A stretch of DNA of 46,233 nucleotides from a virus (Duplodnaviria; Heunggongvirae; Uroviricota; Caudoviricetes), in IMG/VR virus record IMGVR_UViG_3300042887_002597, positions 1 through 46,233 of that record. One strand, 5' to 3'. Below are positions 13,443-29,213 of this stretch, piece by piece. The position numbers were made by a program, and so were the translations under genes. Within the stretch, counting starts at the first letter, position 1; each line of letters starts with the position of its first letter. Below the pieces are notes generated by a model. The model was not told the DNA's origin. It did not search any database and saw only the letters and a program-made list of their open reading frames with translations.

Positions 13443-15095
13443 TTAAAGCACGTTTAAGTCACCTACGTACACTTTACCGTAGAACTCAGGACGAGTTACA
13501 AGCTTAGCGTAGCGAGTCATCACACCACGACGTGGGATGAAGTTGTTCGGATCGTAAACAAGCGGAGTAAGCATCAACGGAATGTATGGTGCGTACACAG
13601 CTCCTGTCTCAAGGAATTGTGATCCACGGAATCCCATCAATACAGTGTTCTCTTGCATGTAAGGGTTCTTATACACAGTGTAGCGGCTAGTTAAAGCACC
13701 TACCTTTTGTACACCCATTGCATACTTCACTTTAGAACCATCACCATCTGCAGCATATCCTGGGATAGACTCAAGAATAGTTGATACGTCTGGAGAGCAT
13801 ACTAAGAAGTTAGCTCCACCACGTAAAGTCTTAGCGTGAATTTGGTTAGAAACTTTTTGAAGTTTTGTACCCAAAGTTGCATACCAAGTACCTTGGATGT
13901 AAGCTTGTCCAGAGAACTGGCTAGTTGTAAAGGTGTTAGTAGCGCTGTTCCACTCTTGACCTACTTTAGCTGACCAGTAATCGGTTGTTGCAGCAGCTGA
14001 AATCAACATGTCTAAGATTTCTAAGTCAATTTCCATAGAAACGTACTCAGACAACATAGCAGTCAATTCTGCTTCAGCATCGATTGAGTGGTAAGCGTTC
14101 AAGTCTTGAGCAAATTCTGGAGTCCAGCTTGCCTTTAACTTACGAGTCTTAGCAGTCACAGGAATAGAACGCATTTGCAATTCAATCTCTGGGATTCTCA
14201 AGTCGGTGTCAAGGTTGTTTGCAACGTCAGTTGTACGAGGAGTTACAACTTCAAAGTCACCACGAGTATCGTTAGTAGGTTGCAAGCTATAAGACATTGC
14301 AGTTGTAAACGATGCGTTAGTTACAGCTGAAGCTGCGATTACGAATTGGATAGATGATCCAGTCACTACAGTGAATGCTGGTAAGTACTGTCCAGTTGCT
14401 GCATTAAGAGTTGTAGAAGCTGACACAGGAATGAAAGAACGTACAGCTGTAAGGTCAGCGTTTGCTGGGATACCTACACGAAGGGTCTTCCAAGTAGTAC
14501 CAGCAGTTGCACCAGTAGCAGTTGTTCCTAAAGAAGCAGTGTAGTTTCCATCTTGGAATACGTCAATTGAAACTGCAGATGCAGTAGTGATTGAAGTTGT
14601 AGATGAGCTAACTAGGAAGTTAGTTGAATAACCAAAACGACCAGCTCCATAAAGACCGTCTGATGCAGCAGTGGATGCAGAAGTGATACCCATCAAAGTA
14701 CCAGTTTGGTTCTTACCTACTGGAGAGAATCCAAATGGGTTCTTTTGGTTACCATATTTGAAATCCAAATAGAACACAAGACCTGATGGTAAGTTCATTG
14801 GTTGAACGCTAACGAATTCTTTAGCTGAAATCTCAGCAAAGATACGACGGATCAACGGAAGAGCTACGCCAGTCCATTGTTCAAATCCAGTACCAGCAGA
14901 GGTACCAGAACCACCTGAGTTAGCTGATCCTTCTTTGATCAACTGCTTAGCTTGGTTTTCTAAAAGAACAGACACGGTTGCTTTCTCGTGCTCGCTCTTC
15001 AAGCCTTCCAAAAGACCTGATTTACCCCACTTGCTAACAAGTTGACGGTTTTCAGCTCCTCTATTTGGCTCTTGCATGTTTTCGAATAAATTCAT
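13443..15095 (-). CDS. gp23: Major capsid protein, T4 gp23-like (550 aa)
   Basis: VQPMNLPSGLVF, TAKTRKLKASWTPEFAQDLNAYH, YAPYIPL and RRGVMTRYAK motifs; candidate maturation site LIKE|G. Confidence 0.95.
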   Translation of the reverse strand: MNLFENMQEPNRGAENRQLVSKWGKSGLLEGLKSEHEKATVSVLLENQAKQLIKEGSANSGGSGTSAGTGFEQWTGVALPLIRRIFAEISAKEFVSVQPMNLPSGLVFYLDFKYGNQKNPFGFSPVGKNQTGTLMGITSASTAASDGLYGAGRFGYSTNFLVSSSTTSITTASAVSIDVFQDGNYTASLGTTATGATAGTTWKTLRVGIPANADLTAVRSFIPVSASTTLNAATGQYLPAFTVVTGSSIQFVIAASAVTNASFTTAMSYSLQPTNDTRGDFEVVTPRTTDVANNLDTDLRIPEIELQMRSIPVTAKTRKLKASWTPEFAQDLNAYHSIDAEAELTAMLSEYVSMEIDLEILDMLISAAATTDYWSAKVGQEWNSATNTFTTSQFSGQAYIQGTWYATLGTKLQKVSNQIHAKTLRGGANFLVCSPDVSTILESIPGYAADGDGSKVKYAMGVQKVGALTSRYTVYKNPYMQENTVLMGFRGSQFLETGAVYAPYIPLMLTPLVYDPNNFIPRRGVMTRYAKLVTRPEFYGKVYVGDLNVL

Positions 15096-15120: not shown

Positions 15121-16182
15121 TTAAATAATTCCTGCCAATTTTTTGAATCTGTTGGCTTGGTCGTTTCCTTCAGTAAGAACTGATTTAGTTTTAGCAGTTG
15201 CTTTTGAAGCGAATCCTTCCATTACAGATTTTTTAGTTGCTGTAGCTTTGTTGTTTGTAGAACCTTTTGCTGCAGTGATAGACTCAGACAAAGTAGCATA
15301 AACAAGTTTAGCTTCTCTTACTGTCTTAGCACGATCAAAAGTTTCAATAATTTTAACCTTTTGAGTTTCGGTTAAGTTGTTACGGAACAATTTGTTCACG
15401 TACAATAGTTTAGCGTTAAGAAGGTTTACTTCTGAAAGTTTAGTACGCAAGAATTTAACAGCGCTATAAGCTTCGTTAATCTCTTCTTCCATCTTCTTCA
15501 TTTTCATCTTCATCTTCTTAGCTTCATCCATCTTCTCCTCTTCCTCCTCTTCTTTTTCCTCTCCTTCTTCTTCGTTTAGAGAATTCAAAAGTTCTTGAAG
15601 ATCAACTTCTTCTTCAGATTCCTCAGACTCCTCTTCGCCTTCTTCTTCACGAAGTGCGTTGATGATTTCATCAAGGTCCATCTCAGGCTCTTCATCAGCA
15701 GCCATTTCTTCTTCTCCTTCTTCAGCATCAAGTTCACGAAGGATTTCTTCTAGGTCTTCATCAGACTCGTCAGAAAAATCTTCTTCACTTTCTCCTTCGT
15801 CAGAGAATTCTTCTTCACTTGAAAACTCTTCCTCTCCACCTTCGTCTGAGAAATCCTCTTCAGATTCGTCAGAAAAATCTTCTTCAGATTCTTCCTCTCC
15901 CTCTTCTTCAGAAATACCAGCCAAAGACTTAAAGCGAGCTTCCATGTTCACATCGTCAGCGTGGTCTCCATGACCTACATCACGACGATCAGCATTTGGA
16001 TCAGTTTCGTTCTCATACTCCTCATTTTCCATCTCGTCATCCATTTCCTCACGGATCTTAGAAGACAACATAGATTGAAGTTTTGGTGCGAACGCTTCTT
16101 CCAATGCCAACTTTGCGTTTGCTAGTGCTGTCTCACGGACTGCTTTAGCATCAGCGATTGCATCTTTCAATAGCTTGTTCAT
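15121..16182 (-). CDS. Prohead scaffolding/core protein, gp22-equivalent (353 aa)
   Basis: Directly upstream of the capsid gene; very acidic centre, helical ends, many (L/I)xE sites, C-terminal RFKKLAGII. Confidence 0.8.
   Translation of the reverse strand: MNKLLKDAIADAKAVRETALANAKLALEEAFAPKLQSMLSSKIREEMDDEMENEEYENETDPNADRRDVGHGDHADDVNMEARFKSLAGISEEEGEEESEEDFSDESEEDFSDEGGEEEFSSEEEFSDEGESEEDFSDESDEDLEEILRELDAEEGEEEMAADEEPEMDLDEIINALREEEGEEESEESEEEVDLQELLNSLNEEEGEEKEEEEEEKMDEAKKMKMKMKKMEEEINEAYSAVKFLRTKLSEVNLLNAKLLYVNKLFRNNLTETQKVKIIETFDRAKTVREAKLVYATLSESITAAKGSTNNKATATKKSVMEGFASKATAKTKSVLTEGNDQANRFKKLAGII
15764..15895 (-). repeat. Imperfect tandem EE(D/E)FS(D/S)E repeats in the scaffold gene
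   Basis: SEEDFSDESEEDFSDEGGEEEFSSEEEFSDEGESEEDFSDES; the DNA unit tcgtcagaaaaatcttcttca occurs twice. Confidence 0.8.
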
Positions 16183-16322: not shown

Positions 16323-16976
16323 TTATGCAGCTTTTAGGCCTAATTTTCCTGCAAATTCTGCTACTTCTGAGGATTTGATTGACGCCATTGCAGCTTCAAA
16401 GGCTGCTAATGAAAAGCTTCCACCGTTTGCTGCTCCGGCAGCTGCGCTTTTGAAGGCACTTACTGCTCCTACTCCGCTATACACTGCTAGTGATGCAATC
16501 AATACATAGTATATTGCTTCAGCTGCTTTTAGCTGCTGAGCTTCATCCTTAATACCTACTTTTTTAAACAGGCCTGATACCTTTAGTATCCATTTTAGAC
16601 CTTTAATGTAACTCTTATGCCACTTGTGGGTAAACTCAATTATCGTGTTTGCCATCTGCTCTTGGTCATCTGGCGACTTTGCTTGACCTGGTTTGAATAG
16701 TTTTTTAAAGAGATTAGTTACTCCTTGAAAAGACTTTACTATCAGTTCGACTACCTTTGGTGCTGCTAATAATGCTCCTACAATAGCTACTGCACCCAAA
16801 GCCTCATTAAGCTCTGGGCTTGATTGATCTACATCTTGTTGTAATTCCTCCTGACTTCTCTCAAGCTCAGCGCCCATTGTCTTGAATGATGCAGCCATTG
16901 CTTGATCTAAAGCGCTTATTGCTTTCTTATCTTCTTCTTCTCGAATTACACTTTCTAGTAGGACTTTCAGTTTCAT
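16323..16976 (-). CDS. Hypothetical protein with hydrophobic helices, candidate internal head/ejection protein (217 aa)
   Basis: MKLKVLLE leader, internal LNE site followed by a hydrophobic helix, and a second hydrophobic helix near the C-terminus. Confidence 0.6.
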   Translation of the reverse strand: MKLKVLLESVIREEEDKKAISALDQAMAASFKTMGAELERSQEELQQDVDQSSPELNEALGAVAIVGALLAAPKVVELIVKSFQGVTNLFKKLFKPGQAKSPDDQEQMANTIIEFTHKWHKSYIKGLKWILKVSGLFKKVGIKDEAQQLKAAEAIYYVLIASLAVYSGVGAVSAFKSAAAGAANGGSFSLAAFEAAMASIKSSEVAEFAGKLGLKAA

Positions 16977-16978
16977 AG

Positions 16979-17347
16979 TTAGTCTATTATATCGCTAAAG
17001 TTTACAAACACATCAACTTCATCTGGTTTAACGGTTACAACCATTCCCTTGCTGTTGATGCTCTTTAATTCTCCTTGGCTGCTAATGAAGTCTGCATTGT
17101 TGTATTTCTTCACTCTTCCAATGTTAAATTTGATAGGGTACTTGAGGTCTGCTTGTGGCTTTGCATCGCCTTTTTCTTCCTCACCACCCTCTTCACCAGC
17201 TGCAGGCTCCTCCGCTGCTGCGTCGTCTGCTCCCGCTTCTTCTCCACCAGCAGCTGCAAATGGATTCTCTCCACCTGCTTCTTCCTCATCTCCTTCTGCT
17301 TCACGCAAAGGCATAAGGTCTTTGAGTTTTATTGTCTTAAAGCTCAT
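16979..17347 (-). CDS. Hypothetical protein, candidate internal head protein (122 aa)
   Basis: IKLKDLMPLRE leader, acidic linker, small beta-rich C-domain. Confidence 0.6.
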   Translation of the reverse strand: MSFKTIKLKDLMPLREAEGDEEEAGGENPFAAAGGEEAGADDAAAEEPAAGEEGGEEEKGDAKPQADLKYPIKFNIGRVKKYNNADFISSQGELKSINSKGMVVTVKPDEVDVFVNFSDIID

Positions 17348-17702
17348 AATATCTTCCTAAGTTGTGACCCATTTCTTCATACAAAGACTCTAAGCGTTGT
17401 TGTAGTTTGGAAATCTCTTTCACAGTTTGTCCAAACTGCTTATTGCCTTCACGCAATGTTTTAAGGTTACGCTTTACTGTAATCTCATCAAACCAGTCTT
17501 GGGTCTCTTGTAGAGTAACTGCTTCTGCTTTAGTCACAAGCTCGTTAATTTCCTCAGCTACACGACGTAAGTCTTCAGTACGATAGATTACTGAACCGTA
17601 TTCGTTGAACTTCTTTACCTCTTCTAGGAAAGCAGCTTTTTCGTTTGTGGTCTTTTTTGGAGAATCTCCTTCAAATCCTTCTAATAATTTCTTTAGTTTC
17701 AT
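17337..17702 (-). CDS. Hypothetical helical protein, candidate prohead core protein (121 aa)
   Basis: MKLKKLLE leader; start overlaps the protease stop (TAATG). Confidence 0.65.
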   Translation of the reverse strand: MKLKKLLEGFEGDSPKKTTNEKAAFLEEVKKFNEYGSVIYRTEDLRRVAEEINELVTKAEAVTLQETQDWFDEITVKRNLKTLREGNKQFGQTVKEISKLQQRLESLYEEMGHNLGRYYEL

Positions 17703-18301
17703 TACATTACTGAGATTATGTCGTTTATCAATGAGTGTACTTTTGAGTACTTGTTTTGTTTATTGTCGTGTGTTACGGATTCGTTAAGTGGTGACATAAA
17801 CGCTCCTTGAGTTGATGGGTTGCTTACTAAGTCCCAGCAAACGATTTCAAAGTCATCTTGTACCTCTACTTTTCCTTCTCCAATGTTTTTAACACTACCC
17901 ATACCTCTTGAGCTGATCCCCAAACGTATGCCTGATCTCAAAAGTTCTTTTGCAATGTTTCCTGATGGAGTTCCTAAGATTTCAATCTTACCCATTAGGT
18001 CATTACCATCCCACCATAGATCAACTACGTTGTGAGATACGTTTTGCAAGTTCACTACTCCAGAATCTGGGTGATCTAGTTCTCCCAATGCTCTACGTTC
18101 TGCTACAAATACTTGCTTGTATTTATCAGCTTCACGACGTAGAATGTCATCTGGATATTGTCTACCGTTTTGGTTAGTAGCATTCGCTCTCTGCATTACT
18201 CCTGATAAGATTACCTTACCATTGTTTTGCTGCATAGACTCGTTGATCTGCTCTGGTGTTACAGAGAGACAACCGATTGAATCTATTAATAGTTTTTTCA
18301 T
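17702..18301 (-). CDS. gp21: Prohead protease, T4 gp21-like
   Basis: NQNGRQYP, ALGELDHP (catalytic His), GISSRGMGS (catalytic Ser) and DLVSNPS motifs. Confidence 0.95.
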   Translation of the reverse strand: MKKLLIDSIGCLSVTPEQINESMQQNNGKVILSGVMQRANATNQNGRQYPDDILRREADKYKQVFVAERRALGELDHPDSGVVNLQNVSHNVVDLWWDGNDLMGKIEILGTPSGNIAKELLRSGIRLGISSRGMGSVKNIGEGKVEVQDDFEIVCWDLVSNPSTQGAFMSPLNESVTHDNKQNKYSKVHSLINDIISVM

Positions 18302-18304
18302 GTA

Positions 18305-18312
18305 TATAAATA
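18305..18312 (-). promoter_or_regulatory. TATTTATA motif upstream of the protease gene
   Basis: Exact motif only 3 nt upstream of the ATG. Confidence 0.65.
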
Positions 18313-19074
18313 TTAAAAAATCTTTTTCAGATTGTTTACTATGTCTTGTTCTCTGTTAATGTTTCCAAGCTCAACGTCTTTGTCAAACCCCTGATACACC
18401 AACATGTCGTTTTCGAGATCAAATGCACTTGGCTCTCCGTTAATAGTAACATCAATATTGTGAACATTCCCTCTTTTGATTACATCTATATCTTCAATTG
18501 GGACATTTAGGCCAGCTGCCATTAGCATCTTACCCATTTTATCTTTTACACTATTTGATTCGATCTCTTTCAAGTTTGCAATTGACTTTGTGCGCTTAGT
18601 GGCTTCACTTAATCTCTTGTGTATTTTTAACAAAGCCTCATTAGTACGCTTCCATAATTTATTATCGCTAACCTGGGATTCGTTTTTTAGCTTTATTGAG
18701 TGCTCAAGGATTTTATTAATTTCAGATATCTTACGATTAATTTCTAAAATAGCTTCGTTAATCTTTTTGTGATTAGGCATGCTTGCATCTTCCTTAAACT
18801 GCTTGTAGTTGGCTTCGTTTATGTTTGGTAAATGCTTTCCTTGATCCTGGTAGCCTACGAAGAAGCGCTTTTCTTTTTTAGGTTTCACTATATAAGTGGT
18901 TCCGTTTGCTCCAGTAGCTTTAGAACTACCTTCGTCATTCGGATTTCCAGTAAAAGCTTTTGGTGTAGCGTAAGCTCCTACTGCAGAGCTATCACTTCCC
19001 TCTTTCTTAATTTTTCTTAGCTTAGCTAATTTTTTTACGAACTTCTTGGCTTCGTTTAAATCACTTTGTTGCAT
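18313..19074 (-). CDS. Hypothetical head-module protein (253 aa)
   Basis: Between portal and protease; LNE/INE sites; basic region and coiled coil. Confidence 0.65.
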   Translation of the reverse strand: MQQSDLNEAKKFVKKLAKLRKIKKEGSDSSAVGAYATPKAFTGNPNDEGSSKATGANGTTYIVKPKKEKRFFVGYQDQGKHLPNINEANYKQFKEDASMPNHKKINEAILEINRKISEINKILEHSIKLKNESQVSDNKLWKRTNEALLKIHKRLSEATKRTKSIANLKEIESNSVKDKMGKMLMAAGLNVPIEDIDVIKRGNVHNIDVTINGEPSAFDLENDMLVYQGFDKDVELGNINREQDIVNNLKKIF

Positions 19075-19921
19075 GCTTTAACTCTTTTAATAGTTCGTGA
19101 TATAGTAATAGAGAAAGGACATTCTCTTCTTTTATTGTCTTTGTCTTTTCGTACTTTTTCATTAGTACGATTGCTTCTGCTAATTTTATTTTAATGACCT
19201 TGTCACTAACACGCTTTGCAGTTTTTTGCAATTCCAACTTCAGAGCGTATGCCTCCTTCAAAACAAAGTCTCTCAACGACTCTGTGTTTGATACGTTGTA
19301 TATGTACTCCTTTAATATATTGCGTTGCTTTGGTGATAGGTTTGCATACTTGCTATTAAACTTATCTACCATAAGTTGGTAGGCCAATAAACGCACATCC
19401 TCATCTTGCTTTCTGTATTCGTTCAGCAAGTTGGCCATTTTATCTTGGCTCACCTTCTTCTTAGTGCGAGTAATATTTTCAAGCACTGTAAAGCGACTAT
19501 CTACCAACTCTGTTGCTTTTGCTACCGATACACCCTCAAACAATCTATACACTGATGCAAATAGTTTATAGTTTTGTATCTTTGTGTTGAAAAAGGCAGT
19601 TAAATCGTAGTGCTTTTTGATTTCTTTTATCAACTCGTACTTTGCTTTTTTAAGCTCCTCTGCCTTAAGCTTTTTTCTAACTCCCAATACGGTGTTAATT
19701 AGCATATTGGCTTTAGCCTCACTTTTATAACTCTCATTTACGAGAGTTTGATACATAACCAACTCTTTTCCTAGGGATGTAGTTGGCTTAAAGTGATTTT
19801 TAAGAATAGCGAGTGCTGGTGATTTATCTACACCTTTCATAGTGTCTGATGTTACCTGTCTCGTAAGTAACTCGAACAAAATGATTGTGTTCTTAATCTT
19901 ATTGTGGCTCGACTTTTTCAT
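19061..19921 (-). CDS. Hypothetical basic helical head-module protein (286 aa)
   Basis: Long ORF directly after the portal gene, with its own upstream motif (19927..19934). Confidence 0.7.
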   Translation of the reverse strand: MKKSSHNKIKNTIILFELLTRQVTSDTMKGVDKSPALAILKNHFKPTTSLGKELVMYQTLVNESYKSEAKANMLINTVLGVRKKLKAEELKKAKYELIKEIKKHYDLTAFFNTKIQNYKLFASVYRLFEGVSVAKATELVDSRFTVLENITRTKKKVSQDKMANLLNEYRKQDEDVRLLAYQLMVDKFNSKYANLSPKQRNILKEYIYNVSNTESLRDFVLKEAYALKLELQKTAKRVSDKVIKIKLAEAIVLMKKYEKTKTIKEENVLSLLLYHELLKELKHATK

Positions 19922-19926
19922 CTAAG

Positions 19927-19934
19927 TATAAATA
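19927..19934 (-). promoter_or_regulatory. TATTTATA motif
   Basis: Exact motif 5 nt upstream of the ATG at 19921. Confidence 0.65.
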
Positions 19935-19947
19935 TGTATTTATTCGG

Positions 19948-21771
19948 TTAATCGTTTAAAATGTTGGCTTCTGATAACAAATTTGGTTCGTCGCTGTCTT
20001 TTTCCTTTATTGTCTCTTTCAATGCTGCTTCTTTCAAGGACTTTATTAACGTCCCATACTCTTTAACCTTTTTGCTCTCAGTAACATTTCTAACCGCTTT
20101 AGTGCCTAATGGATCCCATCCAAGTGGATCAATGTGCTTTCCGTAGGTTCCTGGTTCTTCTGGACGTCCAGCTCCTGGCCAACCTCCGTTAGGCATTTTT
20201 TCATTATAACCACCTGGAACTCCTCCGTTACCTTTATATAATGATGCAAGATCGTGTGCAGTACCAAACGACATACCTGTCTTAACTGGGTCGTTACCTT
20301 CTGTTTTAATTTGCTCAAGACGGAATTGTATTTTGTAGTCTTGTACCATACGCTCTTGCTCTTTTAGGAACTCGTCGTCAGACATCTGGAATAGGTTTTC
20401 GTATATCCATTGTCTGCTAAATAACTTCTTTTCGATCATATCGCCAGCAAGGGTTACTTTGCTAGTCCATATCTCCACTTTCTCTTTTTCGTATACAGAA
20501 GACCCTACTGTTAAATTAAGCTCAAAGTCTACTAACTCTTCGTCAGTAAATCCTTGTGAGTATAAGTGTACAATCGCTATCTTATACAACTCACTACATA
20601 TGATACGCTGAATTCTCTCAATAGTTCTAGCAAAACGAAAATCTTGTGATGCTAATGTAGCTTTACCTGAGATATCTTCTTCAAATCCTAAGAAGGCTTT
20701 TGGTATTTTAAGACCTCCTAATAAACGAGCTTTCAAATACTCGATATCAGGAATGCTATCATATTGTATGCCAGCTAATGGCTCTACTGATGTTGCACTA
20801 TCTCCTCCACGAACTGGGAAGTAGAAGTCTTCAAGTAGGTTCATCATGTTATACTTCAAGTTGTATTGTCCTGTGTCAGGATCCACAAATGGAATCTTTT
20901 TGATACGGCTAATCATTCCTTCCATATAAGCATCTACTTCGTTTGGTGGAATGTTTCCAATATCAATTTTGAACACACGCTTGTCCGGAGCACGCATGAT
21001 TCGGTGAATCAACATTGCATCCTCCATTAAAGTGATTTGCTTCCAAACTTTACGTACTGGTTCAATAATGGAGCGACCGTATGGTAGGAAGTTTGTATCT
21101 GTTAGGAGACGAAAGTGGGCAATCTCCCAGTTTTCAAACTCCTCTGTTTGTGTATTGACTACGTGCGATCTTGCAGCTAAGGCTGAGAAGTCTCTTTTGA
21201 ATCGTACTCGTGATGGGTTTTCTGGATCGAATTCCTCTTCACGAATCATTTCGTAAGCTGCGATTGGTTCAACACCAATAACACCATACTTCTCTGCTAC
21301 ATTAAGCTTTAGGAAAAAATCACCATACTTTAGTAGGTTTCTAGTCCAAGGCCATAGGTTAAATTCTACGTTGAGGATGTCGTAAAATAAATTATGTAAT
21401 ACTCTTTGTACTTTTTCGTTAGGTGACTTAATAACGAGAATATTTCCAGTCTCATCTTTAGTAGTACATTCGTCAGCATATACGTCTAGTGCAGAAGAAA
21501 TGATACTATCTGTATCCATTGCTTCGTAATCCTTAAATAATTCTAAACGAGTTGCTAAGTGTAACTGTCCGTGATAATAAGAAAATCCCGGCATGTTTTG
21601 ATACATACGGGAGAATCTATCGACTCTTCGATTTTGTTCAATATTACCGCTGGATTGTACGCGGTCTACGTCAATTACTTTAAGCTGGTTTCCTCCTACG
21701 TTACGTATAATAACGTCAGTGGAAAACAATCTCTGTAATCTCTGAAATAGAGAAGGATTGTTCTCTGCCAT
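19948..21771 (-). CDS. gp20: Portal protein, T4 gp20-like (607 aa)
   Basis: YEAMDTDSIISSALD, PYGRSII, LMEDAMLIHRIMRAPDKRVFKIDIGNIPP and EDFYFPVRGG motifs. Confidence 0.95.
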   Translation of the reverse strand: MAENNPSLFQRLQRLFSTDVIIRNVGGNQLKVIDVDRVQSSGNIEQNRRVDRFSRMYQNMPGFSYYHGQLHLATRLELFKDYEAMDTDSIISSALDVYADECTTKDETGNILVIKSPNEKVQRVLHNLFYDILNVEFNLWPWTRNLLKYGDFFLKLNVAEKYGVIGVEPIAAYEMIREEEFDPENPSRVRFKRDFSALAARSHVVNTQTEEFENWEIAHFRLLTDTNFLPYGRSIIEPVRKVWKQITLMEDAMLIHRIMRAPDKRVFKIDIGNIPPNEVDAYMEGMISRIKKIPFVDPDTGQYNLKYNMMNLLEDFYFPVRGGDSATSVEPLAGIQYDSIPDIEYLKARLLGGLKIPKAFLGFEEDISGKATLASQDFRFARTIERIQRIICSELYKIAIVHLYSQGFTDEELVDFELNLTVGSSVYEKEKVEIWTSKVTLAGDMIEKKLFSRQWIYENLFQMSDDEFLKEQERMVQDYKIQFRLEQIKTEGNDPVKTGMSFGTAHDLASLYKGNGGVPGGYNEKMPNGGWPGAGRPEEPGTYGKHIDPLGWDPLGTKAVRNVTESKKVKEYGTLIKSLKEAALKETIKEKDSDEPNLLSEANILND

Positions 21772-21787
21772 ATTTTAAGCGCTTTTA

Positions 21788-21795
21788 GATAAATA
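21788..21795 (-). promoter_or_regulatory. Variant motif TATTTATC upstream of the portal gene
   Basis: One mismatch, 16 nt upstream of the ATG. Confidence 0.55.
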
Positions 21796-21803
21796 TCTCA
21801 TGT

Positions 21804-23375
21804 TTATAATAACCACGTTAAATCTTCGCTCTTACCTCCCACATCATGCCTCCAACTTTCGTTTCTTTGCATAGCTCCTGTGTAAATGGTAGCGTTATTT
21901 CTGGTAGCGTTTAGTGCAGCTTTTGTGATATCAATTCCAGCTTGTCTTAATCTTAAAGCTGTATCTCTAACCCAAATACCCTGACACATGCACAATACCA
22001 AGTCATCGTTATAGCCATTCGCTGCCTGAGCTTTTCCTTCTTTCCAAATGAAAGTAGATAACTCGTCCATGAATCGCTTACTTCTGAATATAAGACTTTT
22101 CTCGCGGGTAAGCAAATCAAATTTACTAATCGCTAGTGGTCGTATTTTATGAGACATTGTAAATCCAGCAACCATATCCGTCTTATTAACTAAGTCGTAT
22201 CCTTTTGCTAAAAATACATCAGAATCTAAAACATCGCTCTTGTATGTATAATATAGGTTTTTATAACCTCTGTCTAAAATTTGTTGAATAGTTGCCCAAC
22301 CTACGTTGTTGTTTTCTACTACAAGTAAGGCATCATTCCACTCTGTAGCAACGCTAACAAGCATGTTACCAAAGTCTTTTGTAGTTAGTTGTCCTTTGTA
22401 CTCAGCTACTTGAGTTAGGTTCTCAGCATCAAGAACATGGAATGCTGAGTAGTCACTTCCGTCACCACGAGCAACGTCAGCTGTTACAATGTAAGTCTTT
22501 CTGTAATCTGGTAGTTCCCAAACCCAATAGCCATTATCGAAGCCTCTCTTTTCAATAGGTTCCATTGCTGTTGTTTGTAGGTACCATTGTATAAGGTTTG
22601 GATCCACAAGGGTGTTACCCGAACTACTAAAGTCACAATCACATTCCTGTGCTGCAAGTCTCATTCCAAGCTCAGCATCCTGTCTATCTCTCCATTCCTG
22701 GTTTCTCTCTGGATGCACTTGCCAGGGTAATCGAATGGTCTTAAACTTGTTCTCACCAGCTTCTGCTCTAATCCAAATCTTATGAAAAAAGTTACCAGTA
22801 CCGTTTGGAGTTGATAACAATATACCCTGTCCTCCAGTAGATAACGTTTGTTGTAGTGATGCCCATAATTCCTCTGCACCATCTACGAAAGCTGCCTCGT
22901 CAATAATAACTAACGATAACGCTTCTGAACGTCCAGATGTTCCTGTACTTGCTACTGCTTTAATTTGAGAACCGTTTGATAGACGCATTGAAAGTTTATT
23001 ACTCTCAACACATTTCATCTTTAACCAACTTGGTAGGTTATCAAACATAACTCGTACCTTTGTTACAAGGTTCTTAGATGTGTTCTGATCAATCGCTACT
23101 ACAAGTACGTTCTTATCTGTGTGGAATAGAATTAACCATAAGCTGTATGCAGCAATAAGTGTACTAATACCTAACTGACGAGACTTTAAGATGATCGCTC
23201 TATCGTATTCTAGGAAATGGTCTAGCGTTTCTTTTTGGTATGGATATAAGTGGAACGGAATCTTACCCCTTGTAGGGTGTTGAATCATACAATACTTATT
23301 TGTAAAGTATGAAGGATCGGTGGCGCACTTAACGTACTCCTCTTTGATTATCTCTTTGAGAGTCTTTTCTGACAT
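21804..23375 (-). CDS. gp17: Terminase large subunit, T4 gp17-like
   Basis: KSRQLGIS (Walker A), IIDEAAF (Walker B), STPNG coupling motif, RNase H-fold ADVARGDGSDYSA and DDLV. Confidence 0.95.
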   Translation of the reverse strand: MSEKTLKEIIKEEYVKCATDPSYFTNKYCMIQHPTRGKIPFHLYPYQKETLDHFLEYDRAIILKSRQLGISTLIAAYSLWLILFHTDKNVLVVAIDQNTSKNLVTKVRVMFDNLPSWLKMKCVESNKLSMRLSNGSQIKAVASTGTSGRSEALSLVIIDEAAFVDGAEELWASLQQTLSTGGQGILLSTPNGTGNFFHKIWIRAEAGENKFKTIRLPWQVHPERNQEWRDRQDAELGMRLAAQECDCDFSSSGNTLVDPNLIQWYLQTTAMEPIEKRGFDNGYWVWELPDYRKTYIVTADVARGDGSDYSAFHVLDAENLTQVAEYKGQLTTKDFGNMLVSVATEWNDALLVVENNNVGWATIQQILDRGYKNLYYTYKSDVLDSDVFLAKGYDLVNKTDMVAGFTMSHKIRPLAISKFDLLTREKSLIFRSKRFMDELSTFIWKEGKAQAANGYNDDLVLCMCQGIWVRDTALRLRQAGIDITKAALNATRNNATIYTGAMQRNESWRHDVGGKSEDLTWLL

Positions 23376-23409
23376 ACGTAACTATTGTTTTTTATCAGCT
23401 CCTAGTAAT

Positions 23410-23745
23410 TTAACGGATTCCTCCAGGAGTTAGTTGGTGTTGCATTTGCTCCCCCATTCCTACTTTTTCAAGTATGTATTGCATTGTTTCGCCATCTATG
23501 TCAATATCCTGTAAGGTCTTAATTACCATCTCAACTTTAGCTGCTACAGCAGGATCTCCCATAAGCATGGTATTTTCTTCAACCTTAGCTGTGTAGTTCT
23601 TATCGATGTAGTTGAAGAATTCTTTCTTCTTGTCGCCACTTAAATCTCCAATAGAGTTGATGCCAAACTTATCCATAGCCTTCTTAAAGAATTCTTGATA
23701 AGCTGTGTCTTCTTGTAGACGCTTAATTATGTGTGAAGTTTTCAT
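23410..23745 (-). CDS. Hypothetical protein, candidate internal head protein (111 aa)
   Basis: MKTSHIIKRLQE leader; start overlaps the upstream stop (TAATG). Confidence 0.6.
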   Translation of the reverse strand: MKTSHIIKRLQEDTAYQEFFKKAMDKFGINSIGDLSGDKKKEFFNYIDKNYTAKVEENTMLMGDPAVAAKVEMVIKTLQDIDIDGETMQYILEKVGMGEQMQHQLTPGGIR

Positions 23746-24062
23746 TATCGTACAGTTTCAGTCTTAACGTTTCTAAGAACTTGTAGCTTTGTTTCGTTGC
23801 TGAATCCCATTGATTCCATAAACACAACGAACATATCAGTAATTGACTCAGCTGACGTAAGCTCACTGTCTTGTTTGATTCTCTCTACAAGCTTTTGGGC
23901 CATTCTGGTTGCTTTGCTAACCTCTTCTTGTTCTGGCTCTTCTTTAGGCTGTTCTTCTGGTGCTGTACCGCCCATTTGAGGATTTTGCTCTTCCTCTTCT
24001 TTCAAAATTGCAGCAATTTCACGACGAACTGCTTTTCTTAATTGTGATTCTGTAATACGCAT
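23745..24062 (-). CDS. Hypothetical protein (105 aa; start revised to MRITESQ)
   Basis: The ATG at 24062 is 14 nt downstream of motif variant 24077..24084. Leader MRITESQLRKAVRREIAAILKE. Confidence 0.6.
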   Translation of the reverse strand: MRITESQLRKAVRREIAAILKEEEEQNPQMGGTAPEEQPKEEPEQEEVSKATRMAQKLVERIKQDSELTSAESITDMFVVFMESMGFSNETKLQVLRNVKTETVR

Positions 24063-24084
24063 TGGTGTAGTTTTTAAATAAATA

Positions 24085-24750
24085 TCAGTAAACTTTCTTA
24101 TACGATAACATTTTTGGCTCATGTAGGTAATCTAGCTTATCAAATCCAAAGTATTTTGCTTTAAATTGTGCTTGAGCGTACTCATCGTAGTCATATTCTC
24201 CGTCAAAAAACGGTTTTAAGTCTCTATAAGCTTTATTCCAGTTTGTTTCTGATATGAACACTTCGCAGAAAGCTATGTGGCTTTTGTATTGATTGAAGTC
24301 ATGAAAGTCGTGTTCGATGTGAATCAACTCGACTACTTTATCCTCAGTAATGTAATCCACACAAAAATCAACCATGTATTTTGGTTTTATGTTTAGTACT
24401 TTTACTAATCGTGGATATTTCTTACTTAAACGCTTAAGTTGCTCTAAGGCTTCTCCTTCGTAAGCATATCTCGTGTTGAGATGGCAGTGATCCAAAAAGA
24501 TATGTGGATGCTGTTCCTCTTGCACCATCCAATCTTGGATACATGCTGCTGCATCTGTTGGACTTCCTGGAACTAGAACGTGTCCTGCAACGTTGTTGTG
24601 TTGGTGATATAGACTCTCTATGTAAGTGAGCTCGTATCCAAATCTATCAAAAAACTCAGGAGCCACTAACCTTTCGAACACAGATTCGTCTGGTAGTGGC
24701 TCACTAATATACGGGTGCTGTACTAACTTATAATCTAGTACTCTAAACAT
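24085..24750 (-). CDS. Hypothetical protein (221 aa)
   Basis: Long aromatic-rich globular ORF; start overlaps the upstream stop. Confidence 0.7.
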   Translation of the reverse strand: MFRVLDYKLVQHPYISEPLPDESVFERLVAPEFFDRFGYELTYIESLYHQHNNVAGHVLVPGSPTDAAACIQDWMVQEEQHPHIFLDHCHLNTRYAYEGEALEQLKRLSKKYPRLVKVLNIKPKYMVDFCVDYITEDKVVELIHIEHDFHDFNQYKSHIAFCEVFISETNWNKAYRDLKPFFDGEYDYDEYAQAQFKAKYFGFDKLDYLHEPKMLSYKKVY

Positions 24751-25160
24751 TACTTCTGGTCTTCAATGACTTTTAAAAAGTTCGTTTGTGCTGCTCCAAA
24801 GTTTTTCTTGTCTTTGTTGTCAAATGTAATTTTTTCAATTACACCATCCTTCTGCTTCATTGCACAAACTGTTGCATCGAAACGCTCTAATCCAGTTAGA
24901 GTGTAGACGATGCCGAAGATAGCAGTCTTTTCTGTTACCTTAGCAATCAACTTAGCATCGCTGATAATTAAATCAAGCATACCAAAGTCTTCTACATCGG
25001 CTTCAAAAATCATTTCTTCTCCTTTCATGCCCAAGAACTTGAACATTGGTTTGTATCCGTGTGCTGTTTGAAATTCACGGAAATATGGAAGTCCTACCAG
25101 TTCTGGTGTTGACTTATCTTCTTCCACTTCTCGGAGTGGTATGAGGTTCATTAGTTTCAT
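24750..25160 (-). CDS. Hypothetical protein, candidate internal head protein (136 aa)
   Basis: MKLMNLIPLRE leader; TATTTATA 3 nt upstream. Confidence 0.65.
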   Translation of the reverse strand: MKLMNLIPLREVEEDKSTPELVGLPYFREFQTAHGYKPMFKFLGMKGEEMIFEADVEDFGMLDLIISDAKLIAKVTEKTAIFGIVYTLTGLERFDATVCAMKQKDGVIEKITFDNKDKKNFGAAQTNFLKVIEDQK

Positions 25161-25163
25161 GTC

Positions 25164-25171
25164 TATAAATA
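25164..25171 (-). promoter_or_regulatory. TATTTATA motif
   Basis: Exact motif 3 nt upstream of the ATG at 25160. Confidence 0.65.
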
Positions 25172-25172
25172 G

Positions 25173-25385
25173 TTACTTTTTAGAATAAAAGCGAAATAAG
25201 ATGGATAGACCAAAAAACAATCCCGCTACACAATACAAAGCGAAATTGGCGCCCCATAGACTGCCAGTTGCCTGCATTAGCCAATACTGCACTATATCGA
25301 ATCCAAGAGGATTGAAGAACAGAGCTGCCATCATGCACCATGTTGCTATGGTCTGATTTGATATTTTCTTGTTGCCTACTATCAC
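25173..25385 (-). CDS. Small membrane protein (70 aa)
   Basis: Two hydrophobic segments and basic termini; fills the gap in operon orientation. Confidence 0.55.
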   Translation of the reverse strand: MIVGNKKISNQTIATWCMMAALFFNPLGFDIVQYWLMQATGSLWGANFALYCVAGLFFGLSILFRFYSKK

Positions 25386-25413
25386 CTTCCATTTAAGTGG
25401 GGTTTGGTTAAAC

Positions 25414-25605
25414 TTATTTTCCTAGAATTTTACGAACTTGACTTCGGATTATCTCACGAATCGTATTTTCCTTTGCGTTGATATGCAAAGCTGCCATGTA
25501 CTTACGCAGAGCTTCTTTGTTGCCGTCAGTGCATCCAACTTTATCTCCTCCGTCTTTTTTGTAGACGCAGTATTGATCTCCTACTTTTCTTGCTGTGTAC
25601 GGCAT
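25414..25605 (-). CDS. Small hypothetical protein (63 aa)
   Basis: In-operon ORF with tight spacing to its neighbours. Confidence 0.6.
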   Translation of the reverse strand: MPYTARKVGDQYCVYKKDGGDKVGCTDGNKEALRKYMAALHINAKENTIREIIRSQVRKILGK

Positions 25606-25609
25606 AGCT

Positions 25610-26203
25610 TTACCACTTTCTGCAAGACCAGTATCTAGCTTTCCATCTTGGACCTGGTGTGTCGCAACGATGGCGAGCTCTAAATGATTTACGTCTTGCT
25701 GGGTTTGATTTCTTTATCTTCATGTTAGGGTCACCAAAGTTTACTTTAACAACTTTGTCACCCTTCTTAACATATACTTTGAATTTCTTTACGTCACCTC
25801 TCATTGGTTTTCCCAATGGAACTTTGCGTCCTTGGTACTCTGCTTCCGTGATTGGAAACTTGCCTGATTTAATGTCTTCTAGTAAAGCTATTGCACAACG
25901 ATTACATACAGTGGTTTCGTAAAAACCCATTGGCATTGCTCTTGTGGATCCAGTAGTTGTTGTTTGAGCTGGCTCATCTTCGTACCTAGAATCTTGGGCC
26001 ATAGCTATCATTACTTTATGGTAATCCATGTCGCTTGAAGGTGTTTTGTTATCCATAACATCTTCATTTTGCGCATTTATTTTCTTAGCAGCTGCTACTG
26101 CTTTTTTATGAGCCTCAGAACCTTTACGAGCAGGCTTTTCACCACGAGCTCTCTTTGCTCTGATGTTTGCCCATAATCCTTTTGATTCTTCAGATAGTCC
26201 CAT
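25610..26203 (-). CDS. Basic two-module hypothetical protein (197 aa)
   Basis: Basic N-module GLWANIRAKRARGEKPA and basic C-module KVNFGDPNMKIKKSNPARRKSFRARHRC...YWSCRKW, preceded by an ITE site. Confidence 0.65.
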   Translation of the reverse strand: MGLSEESKGLWANIRAKRARGEKPARKGSEAHKKAVAAAKKINAQNEDVMDNKTPSSDMDYHKVMIAMAQDSRYEDEPAQTTTTGSTRAMPMGFYETTVCNRCAIALLEDIKSGKFPITEAEYQGRKVPLGKPMRGDVKKFKVYVKKGDKVVKVNFGDPNMKIKKSNPARRKSFRARHRCDTPGPRWKARYWSCRKW

Positions 26204-26207
26204 GATA

Positions 26208-26696
26208 TTAAATATCTTCTATTCTCTCTTTTAGAGCTTCTAATTCTCTCTTTCCTATCTCCTCAATCATTTTACCTGATGTGTCGTCCCAAGTTTCTTT
26301 TGTACCATCTCCTGTTACAATACTTGTTGTTTCTTTTGAGTAGTCTTTTATAAACTGCTCTAGATCATCGTAGAAGGATTCCATGTTTGCTTTGTACAAA
26401 GCTTTTATGTAATCCTCCATCTTTCCTGCTTTTTGTATCTCATGTTCCATATCCACAACGCAGTTAAAACACATTCTATATGTGTTCCATGCCCATTTAT
26501 GTACTGGGCTTTGTAGCTTCATACTGCACTTAGGACATGCTATTGGGGTAATAACCTGCTTTCGAAAAGCATCCATTTTTGTCACAGTCTTCTTAATGCC
26601 ATTTTTGAGAGTCCAAGTCTTTCCAGACTCCTCCCAAACGTCTCCTTCTTTGTGGTCAGTAAATGATTTCTTTTCTGTCGTAACGTAATAACTCAT
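26208..26696 (-). CDS. Zn-finger-containing hypothetical protein (162 aa)
   Basis: CPKC...CFNC Cys4 pattern. Confidence 0.65.
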   Translation of the reverse strand: MSYYVTTEKKSFTDHKEGDVWEESGKTWTLKNGIKKTVTKMDAFRKQVITPIACPKCSMKLQSPVHKWAWNTYRMCFNCVVDMEHEIQKAGKMEDYIKALYKANMESFYDDLEQFIKDYSKETTSIVTGDGTKETWDDTSGKMIEEIGKRELEALKERIEDI

Positions 26697-26998
26697 CGTG
26701 AGTGAAATTTGTATTTATCTAAAATATATTGTACATGCTTATCAAACTTACGCAAAGCTCTGCGTAATTCCAACTTTACACCTTCATTTATTTTATCCGC
26801 TTCTGCTTGGTCACCTACTCCTCTAAAGAAATCCTTTCCACCAGAACTGCTAATGCTGATAGAGAATGATGCTTCTGGGGTTCCTTCTTCACCTACAGCT
26901 TGGAAATCTTTTTCAAAGTGTAGTGTTAAGTTGGTTGTTGGTGATGAAGCAATTGCTTCTTTTTTTTCCGTTAAAGGAACTAGTGGTTTTAGTTTCAT
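26693..26998 (-). CDS. Hypothetical protein, candidate internal head protein (101 aa)
   Basis: MKLKPLVPLTE leader. Confidence 0.6.
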   Translation of the reverse strand: MKLKPLVPLTEKKEAIASSPTTNLTLHFEKDFQAVGEEGTPEASFSISISSSGGKDFFRGVGDQAEADKINEGVKLELRRALRKFDKHVQYILDKYKFHSR

Positions 26999-27002
26999 TA
27001 TA

Positions 27003-29213
27003 TTAAAATCTTAAATATCCTAGAATTTGATTTACTGGTGCGAAGGCTCCGGTTAGCTTGTATAGCTTACCTTTATATCTAAATACTACACCCTCTGTTG
27101 GAACAATAGCTTCAAAGCCTCCAATATCTTTCAATCTTAGCAATTGTCTTCTTAAAAACTTCATTGCAGCATCACTATCTGCGATAGATCCACTATCAAC
27201 AGCTGCTTGAATGTTCTTTATGGCTGCTGCTACGTCTTGTTTAATCTTTTTAGTAGCATCATTTGGGTTGACGGTTGTTAGGTTTTCTATATTCTTTAAT
27301 ATACGCACACCCAACTTCAAAAACAACCTTTCTACCGGTTCCAATACCTCTTTCTTTGTTGTCTCAACTTCTGATGACTTGTCAAATTGATCAAACCAGT
27401 TTTTAAACTCTTCGTTAGCAATCTTTCCTTTAATTGCTGGTGATGGTACAGATTTGTCTGTGAATGCCCAACGATTAACAATAAGCTCTCGTACTTCTTT
27501 AGGTATGTTGTACCCTAACTCCTTTGCCTTTTTCTTAACAAACACATTCCACCACTTACCAACATAATCCTTTACAGTATCACTTTCTTGCATCTTGTAT
27601 TTCTGTCTTACAGCATCTGCCATAGCTAAAAATTCCTTTTCTTGCGCTTCGTAATCTGCATCTTGCTTTATTGTTGCTGGGTTAGTTACTCCAACCTCAA
27701 AGGTCTTTTCATCATTTCCTCCTTGAACTGCATTAAAAGCAGATTGTAGCAGCTGTACACCTTCAACGTCGTCTCCAATAGGATTCCCAGCTTGGTCGTA
27801 TTCTTTAAAATGATGCATTCTTAAAAGCGATGCTCCATACGGAATTACGTTTTGAGTTTCTGGGAATAGGATTTCTAGGTTAATGAATCTTTTTCCATCT
27901 TGGAAAAACTCCTCCTTTTGCTTTGGAGTTAGTTTATTTATTGCGTTCTCTAAGTCACGCATAGTTTCAACAAAGGCTGTCTTGATTGGACCTCTATTTG
28001 CAAATTTCTCAGCTACTTGGTCTATTGTTTTACTCTCTTGGCCAAAATTCTTAAGCTCAGTTTTATTTCTAGCTGATCTTACTTTGCCGTCCTTGTAAGT
28101 TACCATTAGGTTCTGACCGTCTAACTTTTCTTGTGCATATTCTAACTTGCCCGAAAGAGCAGCCTTTATCATATCTTTAATATCTGTGAAGGATAAGTCT
28201 AAGTCTTCGTATGGGTGAGCTAAGTGTCCAGCTCCTCCTCCTTCGTTCAATTCTACTTTTTCTGCTATAAATGATGATGGCATTGTGTATTTTTCTAGTT
28301 TTAATAATTTTATTAGTGTAAAGTAAATCACTCCTCCTGGCAGGACTGATGCAGCTCCTAAGCCCATCGTCTTTATTACATCTCCTAATTGCTCTCCAAC
28401 TGCCTTCTTCTCTGCTGGTGTTAGTTTCTTTTTTCCTTGTGCTGCTTGCACAAGTATGGTGAACGCTTCTTTCGTTTCACCACCTTCCTGCTGCACTTTT
28501 TTTATAAAGTCTTTAAAGCGCATCTTTAACTTTGAAAAAAAATCACTTGGAAGTATTTCTTCTTGTAGATTCTTTTTTAAAATACCATATACCTTATCTA
28601 CTACAGCTTTATCAGCTATGTTTGGATAATTTGTTGCAAAAGCCTCCTCATCATTATTTTTTAAATCAGCTCTAAGCACACTAGCACTGACTCCTTTTCC
28701 ATTCTCACTCTTGCCTGGTACGTACTTTTGTGCTTTTGGTGTTCTGTTTTGATAAGGTAGTGGTTTTACATCTAATGGTAATTCTACTACATTTACACCT
28801 TCTCTGGCATATTTGCCTCCCGGTTGGTGTCCTGCTACAAATTGCTGTACTCGCTTGTAATCGTCTCCTTTTGAACTAGCAGCAAGTGCATAACTTCCTG
28901 GTTTAGCAGTTTCGATGTACTTGTATGCAGCTGCAAGTGGGCTTGTTACCTCTGTTTTTTGTATAAGAATTTTGTTGTTAGCTTTTGTTAGCTCCCTCCA
29001 AATTGCAATACTCTGCTCTCTGGTGACACCATCCCTTGGCTCAGGTCCTATCAATATGATAACCTGACTTACTCCTGGTTGCTCGGCATAGCGTGTTGCT
29101 AACTCAAGGTGCCCTCCATGTGGAGGTTTGAATCCACCAGGAAATAGAACAATTGTTTGTTCATCTAGTTCTCTTAATAGAGACTCTGCTAAATAGTTAC
29201 TTAATAAGCTCAT
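27003..29213 (-). CDS. Multidomain protein: HxGH-family nucleotidyltransferase + LETM1-like helical domain + ligase-like (KxDG) domain (736 aa)
   Basis: FPGGFKPPHGGH and VSASVLR (class I NTase); EKLDGQN, EGVVF and YKLTG (ligase motifs I, IV, V); central GEQLGDVIKTMGLGAASVLPGG segment. Confidence 0.7.
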   Translation of the reverse strand: MSLLSNYLAESLLRELDEQTIVLFPGGFKPPHGGHLELATRYAEQPGVSQVIILIGPEPRDGVTREQSIAIWRELTKANNKILIQKTEVTSPLAAAYKYIETAKPGSYALAASSKGDDYKRVQQFVAGHQPGGKYAREGVNVVELPLDVKPLPYQNRTPKAQKYVPGKSENGKGVSASVLRADLKNNDEEAFATNYPNIADKAVVDKVYGILKKNLQEEILPSDFFSKLKMRFKDFIKKVQQEGGETKEAFTILVQAAQGKKKLTPAEKKAVGEQLGDVIKTMGLGAASVLPGGVIYFTLIKLLKLEKYTMPSSFIAEKVELNEGGGAGHLAHPYEDLDLSFTDIKDMIKAALSGKLEYAQEKLDGQNLMVTYKDGKVRSARNKTELKNFGQESKTIDQVAEKFANRGPIKTAFVETMRDLENAINKLTPKQKEEFFQDGKRFINLEILFPETQNVIPYGASLLRMHHFKEYDQAGNPIGDDVEGVQLLQSAFNAVQGGNDEKTFEVGVTNPATIKQDADYEAQEKEFLAMADAVRQKYKMQESDTVKDYVGKWWNVFVKKKAKELGYNIPKEVRELIVNRWAFTDKSVPSPAIKGKIANEEFKNWFDQFDKSSEVETTKKEVLEPVERLFLKLGVRILKNIENLTTVNPNDATKKIKQDVAAAIKNIQAAVDSGSIADSDAAMKFLRRQLLRLKDIGGFEAIVPTEGVVFRYKGKLYKLTGAFAPVNQILGYLRF

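Follow-up and report, generated by a model that had tools for sequence, protein, structure and literature searches.

A KLK leader shared by unrelated proteins in the head module of an uncultured T4-like phage is probably a cleaved capsid-targeting propeptide

The DNA analysed here, referred to as the window, is a stretch of 46,233 nucleotides from a phage of the Caudoviricetes (IMG/VR record IMGVR_UViG_3300042887_002597), and it represents the first 46 kb of a single viral record of 131,354 bp. Five proteins encoded in its head module begin with the same short peptide, M(x)KLKx[LI]...[LIV]xE, which we call the KLK leader. This leader is real and non-random, is conserved at the protein level, and behaves as a portable module, found in related phages on proteins of more than 20 unrelated families. 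Its most convincing explanation, which we regard as probable, is that it represents a propeptide of the type of the capsid-targeting sequence (CTS) of bacteriophage T4, cleaved in the prohead. Leader-bearing proteins would be built into the prohead core, the MKLKxL half giving them affinity for the scaffold core during prohead assembly, a role that we infer from the analogy with T4. The S77 protease would then act inside the prohead, cutting after the Glu of [LIV]xE, and the cut would free the mature protein inside the capsid; that this enzyme, rather than autoprocessing, makes the cut is likewise what we infer. The delivery of the cargo into the host and an anti-defence role are conjecture.

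The five leaders are located at the minus-strand starts that a sequence-only reading of the window had claimed for them, namely MKLKVLLE at 16976, MSFKTIKLKDLMPLRE at 17347, MKLKKLLE at 17702, MKLMNLIPLRE at 25160 and MKLKPLVPLTE at 26998, and their ends (LLE, LRE, LLE, LRE and LTE, respectively) correspond to the gp21 processing motif (L/I)-x-E. By using the tight pattern ^M.{0,5}KL[KM].{1,6}L.E, five matches were obtained among the 162 genes that the 131-kb record contains, whereas 2000 shuffles of residues 2-31, a kind of control that the same reading had proposed, gave a mean of 0.04 and a maximum of 2; none of 494 decoy open reading frames matched. All five matches fall within 16.3-27.0 kb, in the head module, and none was found elsewhere in the record. 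The codons used for the conserved residues differ among the copies, with all six Leu codons (CTA/CTC/CTG/CTT/TTA/TTG), CGA/CGT and CCA/CCT in use, and the DNA upstream of the five genes is not common to them, which places the conservation at the level of the protein and not of a DNA repeat. As had been stated, the cargo parts that follow the Glu are unrelated to one another (in a BLASTP comparison within a database of 5 sequences, the best match other than to self had E = 0.016 and spanned 26 residues), and the large terminase (TerL), 221-aa, 70-aa and Zn-finger proteins are without the leader, the TLKE of TerL not being kept in its orthologues.

To follow the leader in relatives, 80 IMG/VR loci (numbered here with the prefix L) were retrieved through the protease gene, the proteases being 68-100% identical. 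At least nine families in these loci, unrelated to one another, begin with the leader in the form M(x)KLKx[LI][LI]xE. Three of the window carriers are encoded between the protease and the scaffold; all window genes located below are on the minus strand, which carries essentially all genes of the record. The 121-aa helical protein (17337-17702; leader MKLKKLLE, 17679-17702) follows directly after the protease gene, its family was found by BLAST in 50/50 loci, and a homologue adjoins the protease of Microcystis phage Mel-JY01; it is probably a prohead-core protein that is chopped up by the protease. The 122-aa protein (16979-17347; leader encoded at 17300-17347), present in 49/50 loci, starts at the ATG at 17347, has its KLK motif from residue 7 behind a MSFKx extension that is kept in orthologues, and continues after the leader with an acidic linker rich in Gly, Ala and Glu, behind which lies a small C-terminal domain. 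The 217-aa protein (16323-16976; leader MKLKVLLE, codons 16953-16976) was found in 25/50 loci, with diverged forms elsewhere. The genes in this position always open with an amphipathic leader ending in [LI]xE, the wording of which drifts. Being near-universal, the three carriers look like conserved prohead-core or internal head proteins rather than variable effectors. The sequence-only reading had described a portable packaging tag on a cassette of injected effectors: the portable tag stands, together with a T4-type head and a gp21-type site, and the variable effector cassette does not hold for these three proteins. Two hydrophobic segments rich in Ala, Gly and Val (approximately residues 60-82 and 155-176) in the mature 217-aa protein resemble membrane helices; by analogy with SPN3US gp47 (PMC5694885), the protein may act in ejection and on membranes.

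The remaining two carriers are accessory cargo of a hypervariable cassette upstream of the terminase gene. This region holds more than 12 further leader families in the relatives, including HAD/NT5C-like enzymes whose catalytic DxDG/DxDD motif lies about 10 residues past the predicted cut, and it is regarded as hypervariable because the sets of leader genes differ between close relatives; in the window, the 136-aa and 101-aa genes are its only firm carriers. The 136-aa protein (24750-25160; leader MKLMNLIPLRE, 25128-25160) consists of the leader, a variable linker and a confident alpha+beta domain. In an alignment of 21 sequences of its family the leader is near-invariant and the linker varies in length and sequence, and three members (L061, L067 and L070) have lost PLRE and gained an INE or LQE 3-4 residues further on. 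The AF2 model of the protein has a pLDDT of 82.8, with residues 1-15 below 50 and the leader detached. In the 12 orthologues of the 101-aa protein (26693-26998; leader MKLKPLVPLTE, 26966-26998), the leader wording varies (e.g., MKLKKLLE or MKLKKLLENQRLEE), always with [LI]xE before KKEAIA. A complex prediction of the scaffold with this 101-aa cargo gave a score of 0.00 with both chains poorly folded, and is no evidence either way. Searches of PHROGs and Pfam gave no significant match for the five window leader proteins, and in the protein atlas the 217-aa protein matched only unnamed viral clusters and the 136-aa protein had no usable match. The fold of the 136-aa cargo had no Foldseek match at E <= 0.001, and its best VIA-wide Z scores, 6.0-6.2 for the polo-box PB3 and the lysozyme inhibitor Ivy and 5.4 for Ugi-2, lie below the noise level of about 8 and are leads only. 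Thus, sequence, family and fold searches found no recognisable function for any window cargo.

The enzyme proposed to remove the leaders is encoded beside the tagged genes. The prohead protease (17702-18301) is intact, belongs to the T4 gp21/Peptidase S77 family (PF03420, E = 1.3e-29; 103.5 bits against a curated cut-off of 27), aligns with the T4 gp21 structure 5JBL at E = 2.3e-17, and is the single S77 gene in the whole record. Its His77 and Ser130 align where the deposited 5JBL chain has Ala, positions that we take to be mutated catalytic residues of T4 gp21. The N-terminus of the protease itself (18239-18301), MKKLLID...TPEQINE|S, is leader-like with an Asp in place of the leader Glu, and both LL[IV]D and QINE[SA] are kept in all orthologues; by analogy, it may combine a core-targeting segment of its own with a downstream self-cleavage site. 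The acidic scaffold (core) protein (15121-16182), a gp22 analogue by position and composition, contains 18 [LIV]xE sites; shuffling gave 12.4 +/- 2.8, and a count of 18 was reached in 78 of 2000 shuffles. In density of [LIV]xE the 121-aa protein is the highest in the genome (6.6 per 100 aa) and the scaffold the second, as would be expected of core proteins that get degraded. The gp23-type major capsid protein (13443-15095; PF07068, Pfam Gp23, E = 5.6e-76) has a predicted maturation site QLIKE55|GS, with propeptide codons at 14931-15095; in the alignment to mature T4 gp23*, the T4 cleavage point falls at about query residues 47-56, and QL[IVL]KEGS is kept in relatives.

Indirect evidence for the removal of the leader at its Glu comes from a cargo of the relatives. 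In one locus (L062), a leader MKLKNILTSIQTINE directly precedes Cys16, an invariant residue, of a 290-aa protein that has 722 homologues. The AF2 model of this protein, built with 45 of these homologues, has a pLDDT of 84 with leader residues 1-14 disordered, and it matches isopenicillin-N acyltransferase (IAT; Foldseek E = 1.6e-9), bile-salt hydrolases (BSH), penicillin V acylase (PVA), NAAA and acid ceramidase, with VIA Z scores of 15-19. Throughout these alignments, residue 16 pairs with the residue that opens the mature catalytic chain: Cys103 of IAT, Cys2 of BSH, Cys1 of PVA, Cys126/128/131 of NAAA and Cys143 of acid ceramidase. The protein therefore has the alpha-beta-beta-alpha fold of an N-terminal nucleophile (Ntn) hydrolase with the nucleophile Cys as first mature residue (C45/C59-like). 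Its Pfam AAT match, at 21 bits, is below the cut-off of 23.2, and no match was found among PDB sequences, so that a fold search was needed. As in the 136-aa protein, the leader is modelled as detached and disordered.

Ntn enzymes need their nucleophile Cys as a free N-terminus. A leader that ends at this obligatory N-terminal Cys would consequently have to be cut exactly after the Glu of [LIV]xE. Among about 110 homologues with the Cys motif, the P1 residue before the Cys is Glu in all but one, which has Asp, with Leu, Ile or Val in most cases at P3; both positions hold whether 5, 13 or about 100 residues precede. In self-processing Ntn hydrolases, Gly, Met or hydrophobic residues are found before the nucleophile. 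The strict Glu at P1 with Leu, Ile or Val at P3, which is the T4 gp21 motif, argues for a cut by the S77 protease, without being proof of it. This hydrolase is not encoded in the 131-kb record of the window itself, which limits this evidence for removal to the relatives.

Further support is offered by phages other than those of the 80 loci. A 164-kb contig found through a cargo protein (L083) has S77 and gp23 genes within 10 kb and four consecutive KLK-leader genes. The cargo of these genes (L083:8050-11142) comprises a 411-aa protein with a Gly-rich start, a 240-aa HAD-like protein with DFDDT, a 292-aa Ntn hydrolase and an 88-aa Cys-rich protein, and the genes have a gp13 neck gene and a glycoside-hydrolase-19 gene as neighbours. 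A leader of about 24 residues, xNF[DN]LxxFL..LKE|, is clearly common to two adjacent genes that lie upstream of TerL in Flavobacterium phage immuto (BLASTP E = 2e-8 for the pair, strongest over the leader), and a small gene after the protease has a similar-looking start ending in FLKE|. GenBank describes one of the two adjacent immuto genes (together at L082:2891-4188) as coding for a PduO-type cob(I)alamin adenosyltransferase, an annotation that Pfam did not confirm at E <= 0.01. In Microcystis phage Mel-JY01 the tag reads MKIKKIIFE. Judging by their N-termini, these more distant cultured phages follow the same tag logic with a lineage-specific wording.

Among known systems, the T4 CTS comes closest, and with it the variable genes for internal proteins in T-even phages. 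The CTS is carried by IPI, IPII, IPIII and Alt and removed by gp21, according to the work of Mullaney and Black (1996) as it is summarised in PMC9026906 and PMC5694885. For its targeting, IPIII needs no more than the first 10 residues; within the CTS, positions 4 and 7 act in targeting and positions 8 and 10 in processing, an Asp at position 10 blocks cutting and leaves targeting intact, and gp21 itself has LIE-9 (PMC9026906). Proteins of the core (gp22, gp67 and gp68) are degraded to small peptides (PMC5694885), and the variable T-even genes encode diverse proteins with only the CTS in common (PMC3012670; PMC9026906). The T4 facts on which the sequence-only reading drew, namely the CTS, its removal by gp21 and the inhibition of the GmrSD restriction enzyme by IPI*, are present in PMC9026906, PMC3012670 and PMC13326640. 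Like the CTS, the KLK leader is a short N-terminal peptide on unrelated proteins (8-16 residues here, 10-20 in T4) that ends in (L/I)-x-E, its carriers include non-conserved accessory genes as well as core proteins, and a gp21/S77 protease, an acidic scaffold resembling gp22 and a gp23 capsid protein are encoded in the genome. The cassette likewise resembles the T-even internal-protein genes in being hypervariable, with members that share only the leader and differ between close relatives, although here it lies upstream of the terminase gene and in an uncultured phage clade.

There are also differences from T4. The wording of the tag is MKLKxL..LxE, and the phage carries at least two leader flavours besides this one. 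In contrast with the small, basic, DNA-associated internal proteins of T4, the window cargo is mostly acidic and gave no sequence or family match, which makes it CTS-like in its predicted action and not a set of internal-protein homologues. The relatives are predicted from their sequences to load recognisable enzymes (the Cys-Ntn hydrolase and the HAD/NT5C-like proteins), and the probable protease-dependent unmasking of the Ntn nucleophile is a further distinction. The next closest case is that of the giant phages phiKZ, 201phi2-1 and SPN3US, in which ejection or inner-body propeptides are cut by gp21-like proteases at (S/A/G)-x-E (PMC5694885; PMC7411985). As proposed here, the cut is made behind a Glu by a homologous protease; the N-termini of paralogues are conserved, and some mature forms have a transmembrane segment, as the 217-aa protein appears to have; however, those propeptides are mostly longer than 100 residues with a small P3, whereas the leader here is of T4-like length with Leu, Ile or Val at P3. 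The cargo-loading peptides of encapsulins are also short and portable and direct unrelated enzymes into an HK97-fold shell. They are usually C-terminal, bind the shell directly and remain uncleaved, while the KLK leader is N-terminal and predicted to be cleaved. In the literature searched, no published description of KLK-type tags in uncultured phages was found, which is not proof of absence.

Other explanations of the leader have been weighed against a CTS-type propeptide. It is unlikely that the leader is only a pro-segment removable by a protease, that is, a zymogen lock or cleavage site, on proteins which reach the prohead by another route, or that it is cut by the cargo itself or by a host protease. 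The Ntn-hydrolase case speaks for removal and not for targeting, Ntn enzymes can process themselves, and long forms of the enzyme keep an [LIV]xE|C junction behind an extra N-terminal domain of about 90 residues. Nevertheless, M, K2, L3 and L6 are as conserved as P3 and P1 across unrelated cargo, a half that a bare cleavage site does not need and whose counterparts in T4 are the targeting determinants (PMC9026906); moreover, cleavage of the leader by S77 would itself imply its presence in the prohead. We give still less weight to an uncleaved functional helix for partner binding, oligomerisation or membrane association, inherited through duplication and domain shuffling. Such a helix would suit leaders that are short, amphipathic and rich in Lys and Leu, as well as the second (type-B) leader, a longer helix that is also found internally and at a C-terminus. 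An uncleaved leader, however, would leave a Cys-Ntn hydrolase unable to function, [LIV]xE is regained by displacement where it has been lost, and in both models the leader is detached from the folded domain, the cargo domains being unrelated.

A signal acting in the mRNA or at translation initiation (ATG AAA CTA AAA...), or a recombination linker for cassette exchange, is very improbable. A-rich codons after the ATG favour initiation, the leader genes are without Shine-Dalgarno sequences and the cassette is hypervariable; against this, synonymous codons vary freely, the flanking DNA is not conserved, the conservation reaches a Glu that lies 8-16 codons downstream, and in the 122-aa protein the motif starts only at residue 7. 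Hardly credible, finally, is a leader that acts as the recognition sequence of a modifying enzyme such as a RiPP-like maturase, since no radical-SAM gene was found in the 131-kb record by a search whose control was positive in 14/14 genomes, and the enzyme encoded beside the tagged genes is the S77 protease.

Several points weigh against the leader being a CTS-type propeptide. In AT-rich genomes, proteins often start with MK or a K/L-rich stretch, and Ntn hydrolases normally process themselves. The argument from the modelled Cys junction speaks for the removal of the leader and not for the identity of the enzyme that removes it, and for this uncultured phage and its close relatives both removal and targeting are predictions from sequences and models. 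Since the 80 loci were retrieved through the protease gene, the co-occurrence of leader and protease in them is by construction; among the three contigs retrieved through cargo, one (L083) showed S77 within 10 kb and two (L087 and L088, searched in part) did not. The mature window cargo is mostly acidic (pI 6.7, 4.1, 5.2 and 4.9), with one protein at 8.2. In addition, the CheckV estimate of completeness of the record is about 75%, so that "genome-wide" refers to the 131 kb present.

A broader proposal, which we put forward tentatively, is that the KLK leader and its sister flavours constitute a sequence-readable capsid-loading code in a large uncultured T4-like clade, and that head maturation acts as an enzyme switch, the prohead protease unmasking the Cys of a packaged Ntn hydrolase so that the enzyme would be active only inside the finished capsid. 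If this holds true, the head-carried proteome of abundant uncultured freshwater and marine phages would become predictable from sequence, providing a catalogue of candidate early-acting or injected proteins, among them enzymes, possible inhibitors and membrane-active proteins. The T4 CTS principle would then extend to a distant clade with other tag wordings, with a bearing on the co-evolution of tag, scaffold core and protease, and phage capsids could be loaded with foreign proteins by means of new short tags. In turn, the case of the Ntn hydrolase points to a simple means by which a phage could hold a packaged hydrolase in an inactive state until its capsid matures.

The number of carriers in the window had initially been put at about ten, which is too high: orthologue comparison leaves five firm, three plausible, one ambiguous and one rejected. 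A loose [LI]xE criterion for counting carriers was dropped, as it is not enriched genome-wide (18 observed against 13.4 +/- 3.2 expected in the first 12 residues, and 20 against 17.6 +/- 3.7 in the first 15), and the five looser cases cannot count on that basis. Three of these, MRITE..ILKE, MKTSHIIKRLQE and MSLLSNYLAESLLRE, are conserved, although of other flavours than KLK. MGLSEE, the start of a 197-aa protein (25610-26203), was rejected as a leader because its Leu is absent in the orthologues, which start MNEES or MTNEES. MQQSDLNE, the start of a conserved 253-aa head-module protein (18313-19074), is ambiguous, its N-terminal LNE being semi-conserved. At about residue 25 of the 253-aa protein, nearly all orthologues have K[LI](K)KEGS[TD]T, which resembles the QLIKE|GS of the capsid protein; this similarity suggests that the protein may have a propeptide of about 25 residues.

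The second leader type is carried by a 105-aa protein (23745-24062), whose true start is MRITE at 24062 and not the ATG at 24122, the orthologues starting MRIKE. The amphipathic helix that serves as its leader, ..LRKAVRREIAAILKE (23997-24062), precedes an acidic linker, and longer leaders of this type (M-K-T-x-E-L-K-K-L-I-R-E-E-I-R-K-V-L-K-E) head at least seven other families in the loci of relatives. In a 395-aa protein of L062 (2225-3412), the helix EKALREAIRRLAIKQLRE occurs twice, near the N-terminus and before the C-terminal domain, a repetition which suggests a multi-site, polyprotein-like substrate.

The 111-aa protein (23410-23745) starts MKTSHIIKRLQE|DTAYQEFF, with a conserved KRLxE junction that stays with its module inside larger proteins of relatives and is a plausible candidate protease site. 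The protein comprises two modules (DTAYQEFF... and NTMLMGDP...), which in relatives (L022, L047, L074, L039 and L040) are separate, fused to other leaders or placed at the C-terminus of larger proteins; those of 268-513 aa with the modules at the C-terminus start MxKL[DEN]KLIE. Comparison of these sequences indicates extensive module shuffling around the 111-aa protein with [LI]xE junctions kept. A 63-aa MPYTARKVGDQY module (25414-25605) is fused to the 197-aa protein in L078 (2451-2975), and forms the N-terminus of proteins of 339-519 aa in other relatives (e.g., L057:2189-3748).

At the upstream end of the cassette, a 736-aa enzyme (27003-29213), HxGH nucleotidyltransferase and ligase-like (EKLDG), has a conserved 15-residue N-terminal extension (29169-29213) with two [LIV]xE sites. 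In about 100 homologues this extension reads M[NS]xL[ST]K[YF]LVE[SG][IL]LxE before beta-1, the window form being MSLLSNYLAESLLRE, and on this sequence pattern it is possible that the protein is a packaged enzyme. Homologues of about 915 aa and about 625 aa also exist, and the domain architecture varies. Outside the window, genes at 60-65 kb share the start MGSTF[ST]GL[ST]E, which was discarded as a candidate, as it would reflect ordinary paralogy and not a CTS.

The head module as a whole is of T4 type and reads, in the order of transcription, small-gene cassette (29.2-23.4 kb), TerL (21804-23375), gp20-type portal (19948-21771; a gp20 homologue by Pfam, PF07230, E = 4.3e-66), the 286-aa and 253-aa proteins, both conserved, and the protease, followed by the 121-, 122- and 217-aa genes, the scaffold and the major capsid protein. 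At the DNA level, the likeness to known phages is limited to a 139-bp stretch of the capsid gene, in which Flavobacterium phage immuto is 77% identical. The window starts have no visible Shine-Dalgarno sequences upstream, and partly from this absence the uncultured clade is probably one of Bacteroidota phages. A TATTTATA motif is found 3-25 nt upstream of many virion genes, for example those starting at 41449, 39584, 33442, 29213, 25160, 21771, 19921, 18301 and 12661.

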